IMG/VR virus record: IMGVR_UViG_3300020412_000001
Location: 6,062 to 70,061 of that record
Reading direction: 5' to 3' (one strand)
Origin: a virus
Taxonomy: Duplodnaviria > Caudoviricetes
Length of the DNA: 64,000 bases
The position numbers and the translations under genes were made by a program. This document shows, piece by piece, positions 50,110-54,741 of this stretch. A model generated the notes under the pieces. It ran no database searches. It saw only the letters and a program-made list of their open reading frames with translations, and was not told where the DNA came from. Every line of letters begins with the position of its first letter. Position 1 is the stretch's first letter.

Positions 50110-50233
50110 AACGGTTTGGGTATGGTGGCGTTGCGACCTTACAGCACGGACTTAATTTATAAACACAAAACTTTTAATTATGAAAGACGATAACAAAAAG
50201 AACGAAAAAGAGCAATGCATTATACCTGTTGTT
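50110..50233. repeat. attC-like site S1
   Basis: AAC-GGTTT-GGGTATGGTGGCGTTGC ... GCAATGCATTATACCT-GTT-GTT. Confidence 0.75.
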
Positions 50234-50515
50234 ACCCGCAGTTTTGAGGGGTGGACAAGGTTTAATATGAATCACTATTGCTTAGTGCAACCTAACGAAA
50301 GAGGTAAGGAACAATTTATTAAAAGTTGGATGCTTACAATGAGTAGAACAGAAGCAGAAGATTACTATAATAGCCTACTTGATGAAGATGGATATATGAA
50401 ACTCCAACTTTGGTCTGCATTTGAATACTTTGGTGATAGTATGAATATTGGAATGGGTGCGTTGCACGCAAATGAATTTTACTTACAAACCGAGCGTTTG
50501 GAAAATTGCGGGTAA
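50180..50515 (+). CDS. Cassette 1 protein (111 aa)
   Basis: Starts in the S1 loop, reads through the right arm (QCIIPVVTRS), stop TAA lies within the terminal GGTAAC. Confidence 0.7.
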   Translation: MKDDNKKNEKEQCIIPVVTRSFEGWTRFNMNHYCLVQPNERGKEQFIKSWMLTMSRTEAEDYYNSLLDEDGYMKLQLWSAFEYFGDSMNIGMGALHANEFYLQTERLENCG

Positions 50516-50904
50516 CGGACGAGTATATGAATAGTAAAAACACGGATTAATAACACATAAATTTATAATAAGATGAAAGTAATAAAATTTGACACACCTA
50601 ACGGACAATTTCAAATTCCACTACAGAAAGTAGCTGAAAATAGAGCAGACTATTACGCTGTAGAAAAATACGGACATAGTAAAGAAAGCCAAGAATACAA
50701 AGAAGAAGTTGATTGGGTAATGGAAGATGATTTTGAAGGGATTGACTGGCTTATAAACAACTCTAACTTTGAAGATTGGACTGATTCAGCTACGAAATTG
50801 AACGATGAAGTTAATGTAACCGAAGATGACTTTTGGTGTGATAGCGAATACTTTGAAATTGTAGAAGCACAAGCGTAGTGTTTTTATTATTTATATACAT
50901 TGTT
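50514..50904. repeat. attC-like site S2 (loop contains a whole gene)
   Basis: AAC-GGACGA-GTATATGAATAGTAAAAACAC ... GTGTTTTTATTATTTATATAC-ATT-GTT; 21-bp arms with two G.T pairs. Confidence 0.75.
50573..50878 (+). CDS. Acidic 101-aa protein inside the S2 loop
   Basis: AAGATG start; stop TAG abuts the right arm at 50878. Confidence 0.7.
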   Translation: MKVIKFDTPNGQFQIPLQKVAENRADYYAVEKYGHSKESQEYKEEVDWVMEDDFEGIDWLINNSNFEDWTDSATKLNDEVNVTEDDFWCDSEYFEIVEAQA

Positions 50905-51006
50905 ATATATCTGGTGGCACACAGCACAATGCTAGTCAAGGAGAGTGAACTCCCGAAATAACTCGCTGATAGGAAATGAGCTAACCTATAAGTGCCACTT
51001 GTATAT

Positions 51007-51197
51007 AACGTTCTGGTGGTATGAATAGTTGCGTGGATTAATAACTAAAACTTATAAAAATGAATAATAGAGAAATAATTAAATTGATAATAGAAAACTG
51101 GTTTGTTGAAAAAACAAGTATTAAGCCAACACAATACGGATTAGATAACTTGGTTGATAGAATTGTATATAATGAGCAATTATTTACACCACGTGTT
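51007..51197. repeat. attC-like site S3
   Basis: AAC-GTTCTG-GTGGTATGAATAGTTGC ... GCAATTATTTACACCAC-GT-GTT. Confidence 0.7.
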
Positions 51198-51353
51198 GTG
51201 AGTAGTTTAACGGTTAAAGATAAACTATACTTAAATACCTTATTAGTAAATAAGTTGTTAGAAAAAGAAACTGACGGAACTTACAAAGCAGTAAATAACA
51301 TTGGTATTATGGATAGGATAAATGAATTGATGGAAAAAGTAAATAATAGTTAA
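51060..51353 (+). CDS. Cassette 3 protein (97 aa)
   Basis: Starts in the S3 loop, crosses the arm as QLFTPRVVSSL. Confidence 0.65.
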   Translation: MNNREIIKLIIENWFVEKTSIKPTQYGLDNLVDRIVYNEQLFTPRVVSSLTVKDKLYLNTLLVNKLLEKETDGTYKAVNNIGIMDRINELMEKVNNS

Positions 51354-51362
51354 ATTACTTAC

Positions 51363-51432
51363 AACGAATACGTATAAAGCAAGTTTTGAGCGCAAAGGCT
51401 TTAGCATCGGCTAATTTGCTTTATACAGTGTT
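51363..51432. repeat. attC-like site S4 (shortest, 70 nt)
   Basis: AAC-GAATAC-GTATAAAGCAAGTT ... AATTTGCTTTATAC-AGT-GTT. Confidence 0.8.
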
Positions 51433-51504
51433 GTGAAATGTAATAGCCGTGCGCTTGGAAAGCGCAAACAGGAATACTAATATTAACGAAATACAGATAA
51501 AATT

Positions 51505-51906
51505 ATGAAAGCACACGAATTAAGAATTGGGAATTATGTAGAGATTTTTGGAGTACAAAAAGTAATTTCTATAAATTCAAAAAAAATAAAAGTTGAATCT
51601 GAAAAAAAAGACGGTTCTGTTACAAGAGAAAAAGTACCTTTATTTTCAGCATCATTAAAACCAATACCGTTAACAGAAAAATGGTTAAAGAAATTAAGCC
51701 CGCAAGTAAAAGATTTTGGAAGTAATACTTTCGGAATAGGTAGGTTTCAGTTTATTTGGAAAGCTTCTTATAAATACTGGTATGTAGTTGATGATATGAG
51801 TGAAGCATATATTACTAAAATTGAATTTGTACACGAATATCAAAACTTTTGTTTTGTAATGAATGGTCAAGAATTAAAATTAGCAAGCGATAGCGCGCAG
51901 ATTTAG
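51505..51906 (+). CDS. Cassette 4 protein (133 aa), common Bacteroidota phage family
   Basis: MKAHELRIGNYV...PIPLTEKWL...FVHEYQN pattern. Confidence 0.7.
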   Translation: MKAHELRIGNYVEIFGVQKVISINSKKIKVESEKKDGSVTREKVPLFSASLKPIPLTEKWLKKLSPQVKDFGSNTFGIGRFQFIWKASYKYWYVVDDMSEAYITKIEFVHEYQNFCFVMNGQELKLASDSAQI

Positions 51907-52717: not shown

Positions 52718-52731
52718 CTTTTATTAACTAC

Positions 52732-52855
52732 AACGAGTTTGTATATGGCTCGTGGCGTTTTGGAAGTTACGGATTTTTCAGATTTATTTTTGTTTATTGG
52801 AATGTAGGAATTTAAATTCACTTAACCCTCCAAGCTATGAGCTATATACGTTGTT
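52732..52855. repeat. attC-like site S7
   Basis: AAC-GAGTTT-GTATATGGCTCGTGGC ... GCTATGAGCTATATAC-GTT-GTT. Confidence 0.8.
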
Positions 52856-53492
52856 GTGAGCTGGTCTTCTCCAATGGTTTTGAATTTAAATATAAACTAT
52901 CAGATTTATTTTCGAAACTTATAATAGCTTGTTGTATTCCGTCTTTTGGTATTTTATAAATGTATTCAATGTGATTATAAAAGCCACTTTTAAATTCTAT
53001 TCGCGTCATTTTTGGAAAAACTGGAATTTTTTCAATTAGATTATTAATTTCATCAGTGTTGTTAATAGCATCTGAAATATTGTCTATTTCAACATTCACA
53101 TAATCATTTAATTCTCCAGATTTACCAAAATCGATTGAACTTCCACGAAAATATTCTTCATTTTCACCTTGTTTTCTAAAATTGTGAGTTTGAAAGTGCC
53201 ATTTATTGAACTCGTTAATATTCACTTCTGATTTTTGCGTAAATTTCTCTGGCCATATTGAAGAAGAAAATCCAATTTCAGTTCCGTTTTTTAAAATAAC
53301 AAACGCAGAAATCTCTTCTATTTCTAAATCAAAATTACCAATTTTCAAATCAGCCTTTTCAACTAATGGCATTTGTTCAAAAATCGATTGGACTTTATTA
53401 AATTCTTGGTAATATTTATATTCGAAAAAATACCAATAGATTGTGAAAAGTACTGCCAGGACAAATAATATTCCGATTAATATTCTTTTCAT
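52842..53492 (-). CDS. Cassette 7 membrane-anchored protein (216 aa), the only minus-strand cargo
   Basis: N-terminal TM MKRILIGILFVLAVLFTIYWYFF; C-terminus SSQQRI* runs into the S7 arm. Confidence 0.75.
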   Translation of the reverse strand: MKRILIGILFVLAVLFTIYWYFFEYKYYQEFNKVQSIFEQMPLVEKADLKIGNFDLEIEEISAFVILKNGTEIGFSSSIWPEKFTQKSEVNINEFNKWHFQTHNFRKQGENEEYFRGSSIDFGKSGELNDYVNVEIDNISDAINNTDEINNLIEKIPVFPKMTRIEFKSGFYNHIEYIYKIPKDGIQQAIISFENKSDSLYLNSKPLEKTSSQQRI

Positions 53493-53515
53493 AGAGTTTT
53501 TTTTGACTTGCTCAC

Positions 53516-53640
53516 AACGTTAAAGTATAACCATCCGTTTTTAAATTAAATAAAAAACCATTGAAAATGAACACTTTACAAAATATAAACAGTAATCAAT
53601 TAAATAAGCATCAAATAAAAAATGGTGGTTATACGGTGTT
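53516..53640. repeat. attC-like site S8
   Basis: AAC-GTTAAA-GTATAACCATCCGTTTTT ... AAAAATGGTGGTTATAC-GGT-GTT. Confidence 0.8.
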
Positions 53641-53860
53641 ACCAAATGTAGCACCGATTGACAGAACGAAATTTAGCAAAAAAGACAATAAGTATATTGA
53701 TTGTGCCTTGTTTTTATGTGGCTATTTAGGTGTTGAAAATTGCAGACAAAAAAGAGGTGTTGTATCGAGCCAAATAGACTATATCGCAAACACAATTAAA
53801 AGACACCTAGAAGGAATGGATTATGAAGATATTGATATAGATGGTCAACTTCCTAAATAA
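53561..53860 (+). CDS. Cassette 8 protein (~97-99 aa)
   Basis: Starts in the S8 loop, crosses the arm as KNGGYTVLPNV. Confidence 0.6.
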   Translation: MKMNTLQNINSNQLNKHQIKNGGYTVLPNVAPIDRTKFSKKDNKYIDCALFLCGYLGVENCRQKRGVVSSQIDYIANTIKRHLEGMDYEDIDIDGQLPK

Positions 53861-53881
53861 GCACTAAACTAAGGTGCTATT

Positions 53882-53920
53882 TTTGGTAACTACTATATAT
53901 CAAAACACCTTGTTAAACCC
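53882..53920. other. attI-like half site
   Basis: TTTGGTAAC-TACTAT-ATATCAAAACACCTTGTTAAACCC: has the core AAC but is followed by T rather than the invariant G and has no hairpin arm; lies between cassette 8 and the recombinase. Confidence 0.5.
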
Positions 53921-53940
53921 TATAAACACTAATAAAAATT

Positions 53941-54741
53941 ATGAAAATTAGAAAGTACATAGAACAATATTCTAAAGATTGTGATTTTAAATATCCATCT
54001 GATGCTACTAGGAGAACATACAAAAATGGTGTTAGATTATTTTTAGAACATTTTGAAAACGAAATACAACCCAAGTCAATTTCAAACGAAAAGATTAAAG
54101 AGTTTTTAATGACTGCGAAAACGCATAACACCAGGAAACAATTACAATGTTCTATTAATTCATTTTATACACTTACAGTTAAAATGCCTAGTAAAATTAG
54201 TAGTATACCATATCCTAAAAAACAAAAGTCACTGCCTAGAATTATAGACACAAAACATTTAATTGAATCAATTAATTCCATTCAAAACATTAAACACAAG
54301 GCAATATTAATGACAACATATTCTTGTGCTTTAAGAGTATCTGAAGTATGTAATTTAAAGATTGATGATATTGATAGTAAACGTGGAATAATTCACATTA
54401 AAAATGCAAAAGGACAAAAAGATCGTATTGTAAAACTAAGTGACAAACTATTAATATGTCTTAGAAAATATTACAAAAAACATAGACCTACAGAATACTT
54501 ATTTAATGGCCAATCTAAATTAAAATACACATCCAATAGTTGCAATAAATTAGTCAAAAAATATATAGGTTCAAAATACTCAATGCACCACCTAAGACAT
54601 TCTGGTGCAACAGCAATGTTAGAAAACGGAACAGAAATTAATGTGATCCAAAAAGTGCTAGGACACAATTCAATCAAAACGACAATGATTTACACGCACG
54701 TATCAAATAATTTAATCCAGAGCGTAGCAACCCCTATGTAA
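53941..54741 (+). CDS. Tyrosine recombinase (266 aa), integron-integrase/XerD-like
   Basis: Complete catalytic set: ALRVSE (R), NAKGQKDR (K), HHLRHS (HxxR), LGHNS (H), TMIYTH (Y); short SAM-like N-domain, no arm-binding domain. Confidence 0.9.
   Translation: MKIRKYIEQYSKDCDFKYPSDATRRTYKNGVRLFLEHFENEIQPKSISNEKIKEFLMTAKTHNTRKQLQCSINSFYTLTVKMPSKISSIPYPKKQKSLPRIIDTKHLIESINSIQNIKHKAILMTTYSCALRVSEVCNLKIDDIDSKRGIIHIKNAKGQKDRIVKLSDKLLICLRKYYKKHRPTEYLFNGQSKLKYTSNSCNKLVKKYIGSKYSMHHLRHSGATAMLENGTEINVIQKVLGHNSIKTTMIYTHVSNNLIQSVATPM

Follow-up and report, generated by a model that had tools for sequence, protein, structure and literature searches.

The locus studied here raises the question of whether a run of hairpins, the small genes among them and the tyrosine recombinase gene that follows form a system by which a phage captures and shuffles genes. 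The window (the whole 64-kb stretch of DNA that was analysed) is part of a marine phage genome of 70 kb that is complete and has terminal repeats. Its array consists of hairpin sites S1-S8 (50110-53640), all on the + strand and with eight small cargo genes lying among them, followed by a hairpin-less site and then by the recombinase gene (Table 1). The original prediction had read this locus as a cassette platform, and sequence comparisons support that reading: the array is probably a phage-borne gene-cassette platform that is integron-like in function and has a small Xer-like tyrosine recombinase as its enzyme. It is not a true integron, as the recombinase lacks the IntI insertion, the cores deviate from the attC consensus and the cargo is oppositely oriented.

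Table 1. Features of the array, in positions of the window. Scanner, score in the stem scanner; R1, score in the covariance model.
Feature	Position	Strand	Description
S1	50110..50233	+	First hairpin site; fixed left edge of array
Cassette 1 ORF, 111 aa	50180..50515	+	Weak match to a PHROG entry without assigned function
S2	50514..50904	+	Scanner 19; arms 19-21 bp
S2-loop ORF, 101 aa	50573..50878	+	Match to phrog_17928 (PHROG entry without assigned function)
S3	51007..51197	+	Scanner 12.5; R1 39.5 bits, E 1e-6
Cassette 3 ORF, 97 aa	51060..51353	+	No family match (Pfam, PHROG, PADLOC)
S4	51363..51432	+	Short intergenic hairpin; scanner 13; R1 52.9 bits
Cassette 4 ORF, 133 aa	51505..51906	+	phrog_10066, 3e-19
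S5	51978..52063	+	Short intergenic hairpin; scanner 15; R1 58.8 bits
Cassette 5 ORF, 92 aa	52089..52367	+	No family match (Pfam, PHROG, PADLOC)
S6	52366..52552	+	Scanner 15; R1 41.1 bits
Cassette 6 ORF, 99 aa	52418..52717	+	No family match (Pfam, PHROG, PADLOC)
S7	52732..52855	+	124-nt length class; scanner 13; R1 training sequence
Cassette 7 ORF, 216 aa	52842..53492	-	No family match (Pfam, PHROG, PADLOC)
S8	53516..53640	+	125-nt length class; scanner 13
Cassette 8 ORF, 97 aa	53567..53860	+	No family match (Pfam, PHROG, PADLOC)
attI-like site without hairpin	53876..53906	+	AAC core 53888-53890, then AT-alternating box
Xer-like tyrosine recombinase, 266 aa, intact	53941..54741	+	Presumed cassette recombinase

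The eight related hairpins running from AAC to GTT that had been predicted were confirmed by a motif scan, a stem scanner and a covariance model, and these methods place the array sites on one strand and in the array region. Across the array, a left motif (AACG, 3-8 nt, GTAT) alternates with a right motif (ATAC, 1-5 nt, TGTT), and the motif scan found four further left motifs, on the + strand, in the other 60 kb. On both strands of the window, the top background match of the stem scanner scored 10.5, and S2-S8 scored 12.5-19. The covariance model R1 was trained on 16 sites, i.e. 14 from other phages as well as S7 and S8. In the 64-kb window, it recovered seven of the eight sites (S8, S7, S1, S5, S4, S6 and S3), all on the + strand, with E-values from 3e-17 to 1e-6, while the next-best match reached 23 bits (E 0.006); S2 is absent because its loop is 350 nt. 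S8, itself a training sequence, scored 86.9 bits, and S1, which is outside the training set, scored 65 bits (E 3e-12). The assignment of S1 as a hairpin is upheld by this match but less so by its fold, which requires a one-base bulge in the stem and was not predicted by energy minimisation; the latter is an argument against the cassette-platform reading. The DNA fold of S4 matches the predicted shape (z -3.4), and the arms of S6 are related to those of S3, to which they are linked by repeats D3, D5 and I6. The hairpins were also predicted to separate genes. They do not do so in a simple manner: the loops of S1, S3, S6 and S8 contain the starts of ORFs 50180, 51060, 52418 and 53567, and the arms of S2 surround an entire ORF (50573-50878).

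If these sites bound mobile units, a cassette would extend from one AAC core to the next, with the structured site at its front. The original prediction had proposed related phages as the place to look for changes at AAC boundaries. Polaribacter phages Freya_1 to Freya_10 are ~100% identical apart from the homologous array, which ranges from empty up to ~4.9 kb. The seven length variants (Freya_1, 2, 5, 6, 8, 9 and 10) differ solely by blocks A, B, C, D and E, and these seven distinct arrays, which include an empty site, use one common set of boundaries; all junctions lie at an AAC core with an overlap of 3-4 nt. Each deletion that reaches the recombinase side stops at the AAC core of the attI-like site, and Freya_6 carries an additional block adjoining attI. 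In the Danklef phages, Danklef_2, 3 and 4 cover 85% of the Danklef_1 array, and Danklef_3, for which the junction was read, is missing a 781-nt methylase cassette that is AAC-bounded as in Freya. Moreover, a 1169-nt cassette is common to Freya and Danklef (99.6% identity) and has different neighbours in the two, and the uncultured contigs L017 and L038 have three cassettes in common, at 98.5-100% identity, in a different order. One of the blocks common to L017 and L038, as well as several contig breaks, ends at the GTT core rather than at AAC, and a simple one-crossover model does not explain these ends, which counts against the cassette-platform reading. For the window phage itself, the backbone runs into different sequence at the S1 AAC in the independent metagenome run X5, where a related phage matches the window to 50114 and differs beyond. 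In the same metagenome a recombinase-bearing contig starts at the attI AAC; position 53888 is where contigs in runs X2 and X5 break off, and contigs of other metagenomes diverge at the edges of S2 (50514 and 50905). In total, we conclude that cassettes are gained, lost and reordered at AAC cores in natural relatives.

The recombinase was correctly predicted to be intact and different from IntI. Its catalytic R, K, H, R, H and Y are all present and invariant. It matches Pfam Phage_integrase and, weakly and under the Pfam cut-off, Phage_int_SAM_4; its top NCBIfam match is a XerA-like model, under the cut-off of that model, and it scores under the cut-offs for integron integrases. The IntI-specific segment, which serves recognition of folded attC sites, is absent (37 aa vs 85 in VchIntIA). 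That the enzyme is without the insertion that integron integrases have is an argument against the cassette-platform reading. Upstream of the gene, the predicted half site was found to have no right arm, and its AAC precedes the ATG by 50 nt; in 16 related, divergent recombinase genes, an equivalent arrangement precedes the ATG by 45-110 nt.

A covariance model built from the hairpins had been suggested as a search tool, and R1 gave 51 matches in 873 kb of viral loci, 50 of them on the recombinase strand. All lie in loci with a recombinase that is at least 39% identical, and there was no match in ~40 viral loci with distant recombinases. Next to bacterial recombinase homologues, R1 gave 85 matches, and S7 and a site of the bacterial array L104 share 74% identity across 132 nt. 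In phages as well as in Flavobacteriaceae chromosomes, the site family occurs together with this clade of recombinases, and we conclude that the two are linked.

These observations suggest that the phage recombinase is the catalyst of cassette movement. It is possible, but unlikely, that the sites are genuine and that the cassettes are moved by host Xer or by the recombinase of a host chromosomal array, the phage enzyme serving to integrate the phage or to resolve dimers at the attI-like site. Consistent with this, bacterial chromosomes hold the same site family with related recombinases of their own, and in Freya the array-associated recombinase is the sole integrase (PMC8776804). Furthermore, the Danklef recombinase gene is reduced to a C-terminal remnant and the array is polymorphic nonetheless, so that the enzyme acts in trans, the polymorphism predates the truncation or another enzyme is responsible. 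By contrast, the order and strand of array, attI-like site and recombinase gene are kept in at least 13 divergent phage loci, and loci with other tyrosine recombinases have no sites. The window phage, moreover, already owns a separate integrase: the gene predicted at 55397 encodes an arm-type enzyme of 436 aa (55397-56707), although not, as had been stated, the integrase of a prophage.

Each site spans AAC to GTT, and its outer stem is closed by AAC(G) pairing with (T)GTT. The internal loop is asymmetric, with the longer spacer on the left as predicted (4-7 nt, about 5 nt as a rule, vs 1-3 nt, about 2 nt as a rule, on the right), the inner stem of 14-20 bp opens with a GTATA/TATAC box and has G.T wobbles at fixed positions, and the terminal loop is 30-350 nt. 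An independent RNAalifold run on 16 sites from 10 phage genomes or contigs yielded the same structure, and both sides co-change in 16 of 22 pairs; within a site, the left and right arms pair at 6.74 of 9 variable positions, vs 2.55 when arms of different sites are combined. The stems contain 63 G.T wobbles vs a single A.C mismatch (p 7e-18 under strand-symmetric selection), and the G is in the 5' arm in 62 of the 63. Similarly, the folding energies of S5 (-11.0 vs -7.8 kcal/mol) and S7 (-14.0 vs -8.9 kcal/mol) are lower for the + strand than for the - strand. Finally, the 8 nt that follow the GTT of one site pair with the 8 nt preceding the next site's AAC at a mean of 5.0 of 8 positions in 49 adjacent pairs, whereas the site's own flank gives 2.46 and unrelated flanks give 2.41; for the left flank of the attI-like site and the bases after the S8 GTT, 6 of 8 pair. 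By this pattern, a cassette closes with a sequence complementary to what follows its own GTT, which is what circular intermediates would require.

Because the phage cargo sits on the + strand, the + strand bias is also compatible with mRNA structure. The hairpins might be mainly regulatory or RNA-level elements (terminators, processing sites or translation-start modules), with genes swapped by homologous or microhomology recombination between these conserved elements, as has been proposed for promoter stem-loops in T4-type phages. This view is in line with G.T wobbles on the coding strand and with five of the eight loops, in which there is either a ribosome site with a start codon or an entire ORF; no Rfam family matches the sites, which is consistent with either view. 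We consider this explanation improbable: the junction overlap is just 3-4 nt and invariably the same triplet, the split-site signature agrees with circular intermediates, a hairpin-less partner site is conserved before every recombinase gene, and in the bacterial array L112 the cargo genes are encoded on the strand opposite the folded one, which therefore is not mRNA there. A third alternative, in which the hairpins are repeats that are inert or due to chance and the isolate length differences are assembly artefacts, is very improbable, for although the genome is AT-rich and low-threshold scans return many weak hairpins, the model assigns E-values down to ~1e-17 and its matches are cleanly biased in strand and position, the exact junction repeats are much shorter than any assembler word, and the boundary set is common to the seven Freya arrays.

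On the cassette-platform reading, the recombinase would bind the folded + strand of the hairpin sites, the likely substrate being folded single-stranded DNA, as well as the double-stranded attI-like site upstream of its own gene, and strand exchange would occur at the AAC core. Recombination of site with site or of site with attI would excise cassettes; cassettes could also be reordered or be inserted at attI, the presumably preferred target, and resolution may be replicative. The final 8-11 nt of a cassette form the second half of the outer stem; with the outer stem split across the cassette ends in this way, circularisation would restore a complete site. Cargo and phage early genes share a strand, and the cargo is thus probably read through from upstream; several loops provide its ribosome site and start codon.

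Classical integrons (class 1 and Vibrio chromosomal) likewise have a single recombinase gene by a double-stranded attI-type site, same-oriented cassettes, and sites that form imperfect hairpins and comprise AAC/GTT cores, an unpaired spacer, a second box and a loop that varies. In both, AAC at the folded strand's 5' end is the crossover point, folding favours one strand, and a linear cassette carries its site in split form. Beyond the missing IntI segment, the phage system differs in that no site among 52 fits RYYYAAC and GTTRRRY together, a misfit that had been predicted, and that G.T wobbles at fixed positions and an asymmetric loop are conserved instead of the extrahelical bases of attC. 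Moreover, the phage site is mostly at the 5' end of the cargo gene, with the cargo on the folded strand; its loop often encodes the start of the cargo protein; and the recombinase gene is downstream of the array in the same direction.

Three other systems share single traits. In CTX phage, XerC/XerD integrate a hairpin folded from a single strand of phage DNA at host dif; this also involves a simple Xer-type enzyme without the IntI insertion, a hairpin recombining with a double-stranded partner and a single strand exchange, but there the whole phage integrates via host enzymes, whereas here a phage-encoded enzyme is linked to many small cassettes. The PeSL modules of T4-type phages (Arbiol et al. 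2010) are conserved stem-loops on either side of small accessory genes; they lie in a hyperplastic region and mark swap points, and gene exchange reportedly reflects homologous recombination between repeats; they have neither a dedicated recombinase nor a fixed crossover triplet, in contrast to the 3-4 nt at one triplet and the linked recombinase and partner site found here. The pdif modules of Acinetobacter plasmids are discrete gene modules bounded by Xer-type sites, i.e. sites of 28 bp that are double-stranded, alternate in orientation and are acted on by host XerC/D; these sites have no hairpins and no attI-like partner.

The original prediction had known of no characterised phage example. 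In the part of the paper considered here, Qi et al. 2023 (PMC9892861) report integrons and attC clusters (CALINs) found in phages with IntegronFinder, including Polaribacter phage P12002L, and thus cassette-like units with attC-type sites in phages, one of the same host genus. The complete integrons described in that part have classical IntI and are on prophages or phage-plasmids, the CALINs have no integrase, and neither an Xer-like recombinase nor isolate-level gain or loss is described there. The claim therefore holds for this Xer-like cassette system, for which we found no published description, but not for classical integrons and attC clusters.

Among the cargo, the cassette 4 product belongs to a widespread viral protein family (78 homologues), and its nearest Atlas clusters are mostly viral. 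The cassette 1 product has no match in Pfam or PADLOC, and all Atlas matches of the cassette 7 product are below 0.9. The stop codons of cassettes 1 and 5 overlap the AAC of S2 and S6, respectively. Cassette 7 contains the sole cargo gene on the opposite strand, an orientation that is the same as in L112, the one bacterial array examined.

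The eight related hairpin sites (S1-S8) described in the original prediction were recovered by a motif scan, a stem scanner and a covariance model. In the motif scan, a left motif (AACG, 3-8 nt, GTAT) and a right motif (ATAC, 1-5 nt, TGTT) alternate on the + strand throughout the array, and the left motif occurs only four more times in the remaining 60 kb. The stem scanner, which required AAC and GTT 45-460 nt apart, a left spacer longer than the right spacer and an ungapped stem, scored S2-S8 at 12.5-19; the best score elsewhere, on either strand, was 10.5. For the covariance model of the sites (R1), 16 sites belonging to the 115-129 nt length class served as the training set, 14 of them from other phages. 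R1 matched S8, S7, S1, S5, S4, S6 and S3 in the window, all on the + strand and with E values from 3e-17 to 1e-6, and the next-best window match had an E value of 0.006. S1, which lies outside the training set, scored 65 bits, and S2 was missed only owing to its 350-nt loop. A weak R1 match of 23 bits inside an ORF looks like chance. Folded as single-stranded DNA, S4, S5, S7 and S8 took up the predicted shape, and no such fold was predicted for S1; for S5, S7 and S8 the + strand fold is more stable than the - strand fold. No Rfam family matched within 49500-54741, and the only Rfam matches fell on a terminator-like hairpin 3' of the recombinase gene, below the gathering score.

Coordinates of the features in the window and in related loci
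Feature	Sequence	Position	Strand	Remark
Helix-turn-helix protein gene	window	49801-50085		94 aa
Hairpin sites S1-S8, alternating left and right motifs	window	50110-53640	+	
Gene-less filler hairpin	window	50902-51009		
Gene-less filler hairpin	viral locus L038	4262-4295		
Lone minus-strand cargo gene	window	52842-53492	-	
AAC core of the putative attI-like site	window	53888-53890		
Small tyrosine recombinase gene	window	53941-54741	+	266 aa
Copies of TACTGTGAAAA	window	54750-55043		
Rfam matches below gathering score	window	54785-54828		
Terminator-like hairpin	window	54791-54823		perfect, 16 bp
Separate arm-type integrase gene	window	55397-56707		436 aa
Weak R1 match	window	61087-61198		inside an ORF
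Recombinase remnant	L073 (Danklef_5)	6852-6983		annotated 43 aa
Recombinase remnant	L074 (Danklef_1)	5861-5992		annotated 43 aa
Recombinase homologue and array	bacterial locus L112 (Seonamhaeicola)	7680-14825		
Partial recombinase homologue and sites	viral contig L029	8001-13457		

We assembled a catalogue of 52 sites from the window and 15 related phage arrays. In these sites, a conserved T lies 8 nt 5' of the core and is followed by approximately five variable bases and a pyrimidine. The AAC core, nearly always with G next, pairs with the GTT of the closing (T)GTT, and the G after AAC forms a wobble pair with the T preceding GTT. The left spacer measures 4-7 nt and the right spacer 1-3 nt, the inner stem opens with a GTATA/TATAC box, and 3' of GTT there follow a purine, six variable bases and usually a G. 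Total site lengths form clusters near 86, 124 and 190 nt, and outliers extend to 439 nt; these discrete classes suggest conserved loop modules rather than free length variation. In the window, it is sites of the 124-nt and 190-nt classes that have the beginning of the following ORF in their loop. An RNAalifold consensus, obtained independently of the scanner, gave the same structure, with 16 of its 22 pairs covarying, and of nine variable stem positions a left arm matches the right arm of the same site at more positions than it matches arms of other sites (mean 6.74 vs 2.55). The catalogued sites therefore follow the attC-type hairpin plan, i.e. outer AAC and GTT cores that pair with each other, a spacer left unpaired, an inner box and a loop of variable size. 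As had been anticipated, they do not fit the RYYYAAC/GTTRRRY consensus: 4 of the 52 fit one half, 4 of the 52 fit the other and none fits both. Because of this misfit to the attC consensus on which integron-finding tools rely, such tools may miss arrays of this kind.

An earlier strand-neutral, low-threshold scan was swamped by AT-rich noise, and a motif-anchored symmetric test was used instead, in which sites were chosen by their box motifs and G.T and A.C pairs were scored alike over the next ten stem positions. These positions held 257 Watson-Crick pairs, 63 G.T wobbles, one A.C mismatch and nine other mismatches (p 7e-18). The wobble G lies in the 5' arm in 62 of 63 cases, at recurring positions. 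Since the complementary strand would show A.C mismatches at these positions, we conclude that selection acts on the fold of the + strand. The consensus has no conserved bulged bases, and strand identity would instead be marked by the fixed G.T wobbles together with an internal loop of approximately 5 vs 2 nt.

The 8 nt after the GTT of one site and the 8 nt before the AAC of the next site (or of the attI-like site) are complementary, with a mean of 5.0 of 8 and a mode of 6-7 over 49 adjacent pairs; the control values were 2.46 when a site's left flank was used in place of the next one, and 2.41 (sd 1.34) when flanks were taken from other arrays. Low values coincide with intermediate sites missed by the scanner. 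Therefore, a cassette cut at both AAC cores and circularised would rebuild a site with an outer stem of approximately 12 bp, the same split-site logic as in integron cassettes. Separately, gene-less filler between a GTT and the next AAC, seen in the window and in L038, forms a small hairpin whose base is the flanking GTT and AAC, i.e. the outer stem of the circular form, in place.

The 266-aa protein encoded downstream of the array has a clear Pfam Phage_integrase domain and a weak N-terminal match to SAM_4 (25.2 bits vs a cut-off of 27), and Pfam detected no arm-binding domain. Its catalytic residues R132, K157/K160, H216, R219, H242 and Y251 are invariant in 16 homologues, and it is a simple two-domain tyrosine recombinase with the full catalytic set; simple tyrosine recombinases are classified in PMC8138268. 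The best curated match was XerA_Arch (170 bits vs a cut-off of 220), the XerC and XerD models gave 143 (cut-off 335) and 142 (cut-off 330), and among solved structures a XerC-like protein and XerA come closest. Judged against the Xer chromosome-dimer resolvases (XerC/D, XerA, XerH, XerS), the protein stays below the curated family cut-offs. The linked sites are not a single palindromic dif-type site; they comprise an array of asymmetric hairpins and one asymmetric attI-like site. The recombinase had also been described as a non-IntI enzyme, and this description was borne out: integron-integrase models scored far below their cut-offs (TIGR02249, 121 bits vs 265; PRK15417, 78 vs 435) and the IntI-specific segment is absent. 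The alignment to VchIntIA (2a3v) splits in two, with query residues 176-212 (37 residues) facing residues 179-263 of the chain (85 residues). Approximately 48 residues are missing relative to VchIntIA, and the gap region includes the IntI-specific insertion (I2 helix region). Because 37 residues face 85 in the region that holds this insertion, we conclude that the insertion is absent from the phage recombinase.

A hairpin-less partner site is present 45-110 nt 5' of 16 recombinase genes and has the order T-rich left flank, AAC, 3-4 nt and AT-alternating box. It is a putative attI-like cassette insertion site; the Freya deletions described below stop at this site, and Freya_6 has an additional block beside it. 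Polaribacter phage Leef_1 has four hairpin sites and the partner site, and Cellulophaga phage Ingeline_1 has one hairpin site and the partner site.

Searching with the recombinase returned 64 viral loci. Wherever the recombinase is at least 39% identical and upstream sequence is available, sites lie within approximately 5 kb upstream on the recombinase strand. R1 gave 51 matches at E ≤1e-3 in 873 kb of viral loci; 50 of the 51 are on the + strand, and all lie upstream of the recombinase in loci with at least 39% identity. No R1 sites were found beside the distant tyrosine recombinases in approximately 40 viral loci. A profile search of bacteria (one genome per species) gave 80 loci with homologues of 33-57% identity, mostly from Flavobacteriaceae, in which R1 detected 85 sites at E ≤1e-3. 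Most of these bacterial sites (78 of 85) are on the strand opposite to the recombinase, and nearly all are downstream of its 3' end; site-bearing examples are Polaribacter vadi, Seonamhaeicola, Mariniflexile, Winogradskyella, Aquimarina, Maribacter, Flagellimonas and Flavobacterium psychrophilum. In L112, the one bacterial locus examined for cargo polarity, the recombinase homologue is longer (376 aa), the array lies downstream, and the cargo ORFs follow the recombinase on its own strand, antisense to the folded strand, which is the reverse of the cargo polarity in the phage arrays. Given this opposite polarity, most cassettes may belong to one of two pools with only occasional exchange between them, and the minus-strand cargo gene in the window may be one such exchange. 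Nucleotide comparison found no cargo common to the phage arrays and the 80 bacterial loci; only the sites are similar. Finally, in the viral contig L029 a recombinase homologue is present as its C-terminal half alone, and opposite-strand sites come after it, a layout in the bacterial style; the contig may represent host DNA or the edge of a prophage.

Among cultured phages, the integrases most closely related to the small recombinase are those of Freya, Leef and Ingeline, North Sea phages of marine flavobacteria. Passages of PMC8776804 describe marine flavobacterial phages, among them the Polaribacter phages Freya and Leef and the Cellulophaga phage Ingeline, and report ten Freya isolates of 44.0-48.9 kb with 66-78 ORFs; the passages searched in that source give no mechanism for the size range. 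In seven Freya length variants, we compared the region that a fixed backbone gene delimits on one side and the integrase on the other. Written as array segments A-E, these are empty (Freya_1), A (Freya_2), A, B (Freya_5), A, B, E (Freya_6), A, C, D (Freya_8), A, B, C (Freya_9) and A, B, C, D (Freya_10), i.e. naturally occurring alleles that range from an empty site to a full array. Outside this region, 1.9 kb covering the integrase, the HNH endonuclease and the next ORF was compared, and the ten isolates are 100% identical there. Every junction lies directly 3' of an AAC and has 3-4 bases common to both parents. Moreover, all deletions that reach the recombinase side stop at one AAC approximately 45 nt before the integrase start codon, and the extra block E of Freya_6 adjoins the AAC near the integrase start.

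In the Danklef phages, sisters of Freya, only a C-terminal remnant of the recombinase gene is present; its first 350 nt are replaced by other sequence that includes a reverse-strand ORF, and the upstream array is intact. Danklef_2, 3 and 4 cover only 85% of the Danklef_1 array, and Danklef_3 is without a 781-nt adenine methylase cassette, its junction reading AAC with a 4-nt overlap. Danklef and Freya_10 share an AAC-bounded 1169-nt cassette with 99.6% identity and with different neighbours. Similarly, the viral loci L017 and L038 have three blocks in common (98.5-100% identity) in different order; of the six ends of these blocks, five coincide with AAC(G) cores and the sixth with a GTT core. 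The original prediction proposed a comparison of related phages for cassette gain, loss and reordering at AAC boundaries; the junctions in Freya, in Danklef and in L017 and L038 agree with it. As in integrons, gain, loss and reordering occur at the core, and the linear cassette has a split site.

Contigs of four public marine metagenome runs were aligned to window positions 48500-55600, excluding joints with fewer than 30 letters on one side (50535-50886, 50906-52528, 52004-52041 and 52758-52833). Run X5, which belongs to an independent study, has a 3-kb contig that is 95-99% identical to the backbone as far as 50114, immediately beyond the S1 AAC, where dissimilar sequence takes over; a recombinase-bearing contig of this run starts at 53888, the AAC of the attI-like site. 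In run X2, loose contig ends are at 50514 (S2 AAC), 50905 (S2 GTT) and 53888. At the contig level, these breaks fit relatives that would keep the backbone and the recombinase and carry other cassettes. An exact search with the attI-side sequence gave no other copy in the viral or metagenome collections; thus, no empty or alternative array of the exact lineage was found in these collections.

The + strand encodes the recombinase, which lies downstream of the array, and all but one of the eight cargo ORFs. Pfam, PHROGs, PADLOC and Atlas assigned no function to any of the eight cargo proteins, and a search of other viral contigs with two of them found no relatives. Contigs encoding an identical 133-aa cargo protein were from the same phage or were short fragments 100% colinear with the window. 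The proteins of cassettes 3 and 6 have no detectable similarity to each other despite alike hairpin arms; chimeric proteins are not claimed.

Integrons are the textbook system for gene capture as cassettes and are defined by one integrase clade. Their arrays are headed by the integrase together with a cassette promoter, and cargo is read away from attI, whereas the phage layout differs; their integrase belongs to the IntI clade, whereas the phage recombinase lacks the IntI-specific segment; and extrahelical bases mark the recombined strand in integrons, whereas fixed G.T wobbles and an asymmetric loop would do so in the phage sites. The locus works like an integron yet departs from integrons in three defining respects, i.e. 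enzyme clade, core consensus and layout. Regulatory stem-loop modules of the PeSL type are exchanged by homology between the repeated modules without a dedicated recombinase; the junctions here have only 3-4 nt in common, always at AAC, and a recombinase and partner site are linked to the arrays, both of which disfavour this explanation. Hairpin-dependent HUH transposition is rejected, as no such transposase is present and the inserted units carry a hairpin at one end only.

Altogether, the comparative sequence evidence indicates that the locus is quite likely a cassette platform with the small recombinase as its catalyst. In integrons, the recombined attC strand is cleaved in the AAC at its 5' end. 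In the phage sites, AAC is at the 5' end of each fold on the + strand and every well-defined junction lies there, a polarity that agrees with integron attC cleavage. In the mechanism that we propose, the recombinase would bring together a folded + strand site and a partner, either the double-stranded attI-like site or a second folded site; one strand would be exchanged at AAC, and the product would be resolved by replication. In this way, folded single-stranded hairpin sites would be joined to a double-stranded partner by a minimal Xer-like enzyme that has no IntI insertion, strand choice would be set by the G.T wobbles and the asymmetric loop rather than by extrahelical bases, and the hairpin loops would double as translation-start modules. 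The integration of CTX phage by host Xer proteins documents that a Xer-type enzyme without the IntI insertion can carry out such a reaction. The proposed mechanism leaves two things unaccounted for, i.e. the GTT-core boundaries and the variation in Danklef despite the recombinase remnant; the minority GTT-core boundaries could reflect rarer use of the other strand. We favour the single-stranded mechanism, with less assurance than the platform itself.

Passages of PMC9892861 report classical integrons and attC clusters in phages. A literature search, which left most subscription journals outside its reach, returned no description of an Xer-like cassette system in phages or Flavobacteria. We lean towards the view that a second integron-like system for cassettes operates in phages of the Flavobacteria type and in their hosts, and that its recombinase is small, Xer-like and outside the IntI clade. 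If true, the capture of cassettes by folded DNA needs no IntI insertion, which bears on the origin of IntI from Xer-like ancestors, and there is a concrete mechanism for the fast turnover of small accessory phage genes, the Danklef DNA methylase being one example of such an accessory-gene cassette. The idea is directly testable, since cultures exist both of Freya, Danklef, Leef and Ingeline and of the Polaribacter and Cellulophaga strains that they infect.

The window corresponds to bases 6062-70061 of a 70,061-bp IMG/VR virus record and has a GC content of approximately 30%. The record has direct terminal repeats and is rated complete; therefore, it represents a phage genome and not a prophage inside a bacterial contig, and the earlier wording "prophage" was not upheld. 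The second integrase noted beside the small recombinase is indeed a separate, arm-type protein of 436 aa. The window thereby adds a full system in one complete phage genome: the recombinase is intact, eight cassettes and the partner site accompany it, and a separate integrase lies alongside. Megablast of 14 kb of the window against the phage collection returned no near-identical phage records.

Two elements flank the array and the recombinase gene. Immediately ahead of the array lies a gene for a helix-turn-helix protein, of either the XRE or the control-protein type, which could be a regulator of transcription reading into the array. Between the small recombinase and the genes leading to the large integrase, the 11-nt word TACTGTGAAAA is present in five exact copies and one copy with one mismatch, arranged as two tandem pairs and singles around an AT-rich stretch and the terminator-like hairpin. 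These copies may serve as operators or as arm-type binding sites, or they may mark the attP region used by the large integrase.
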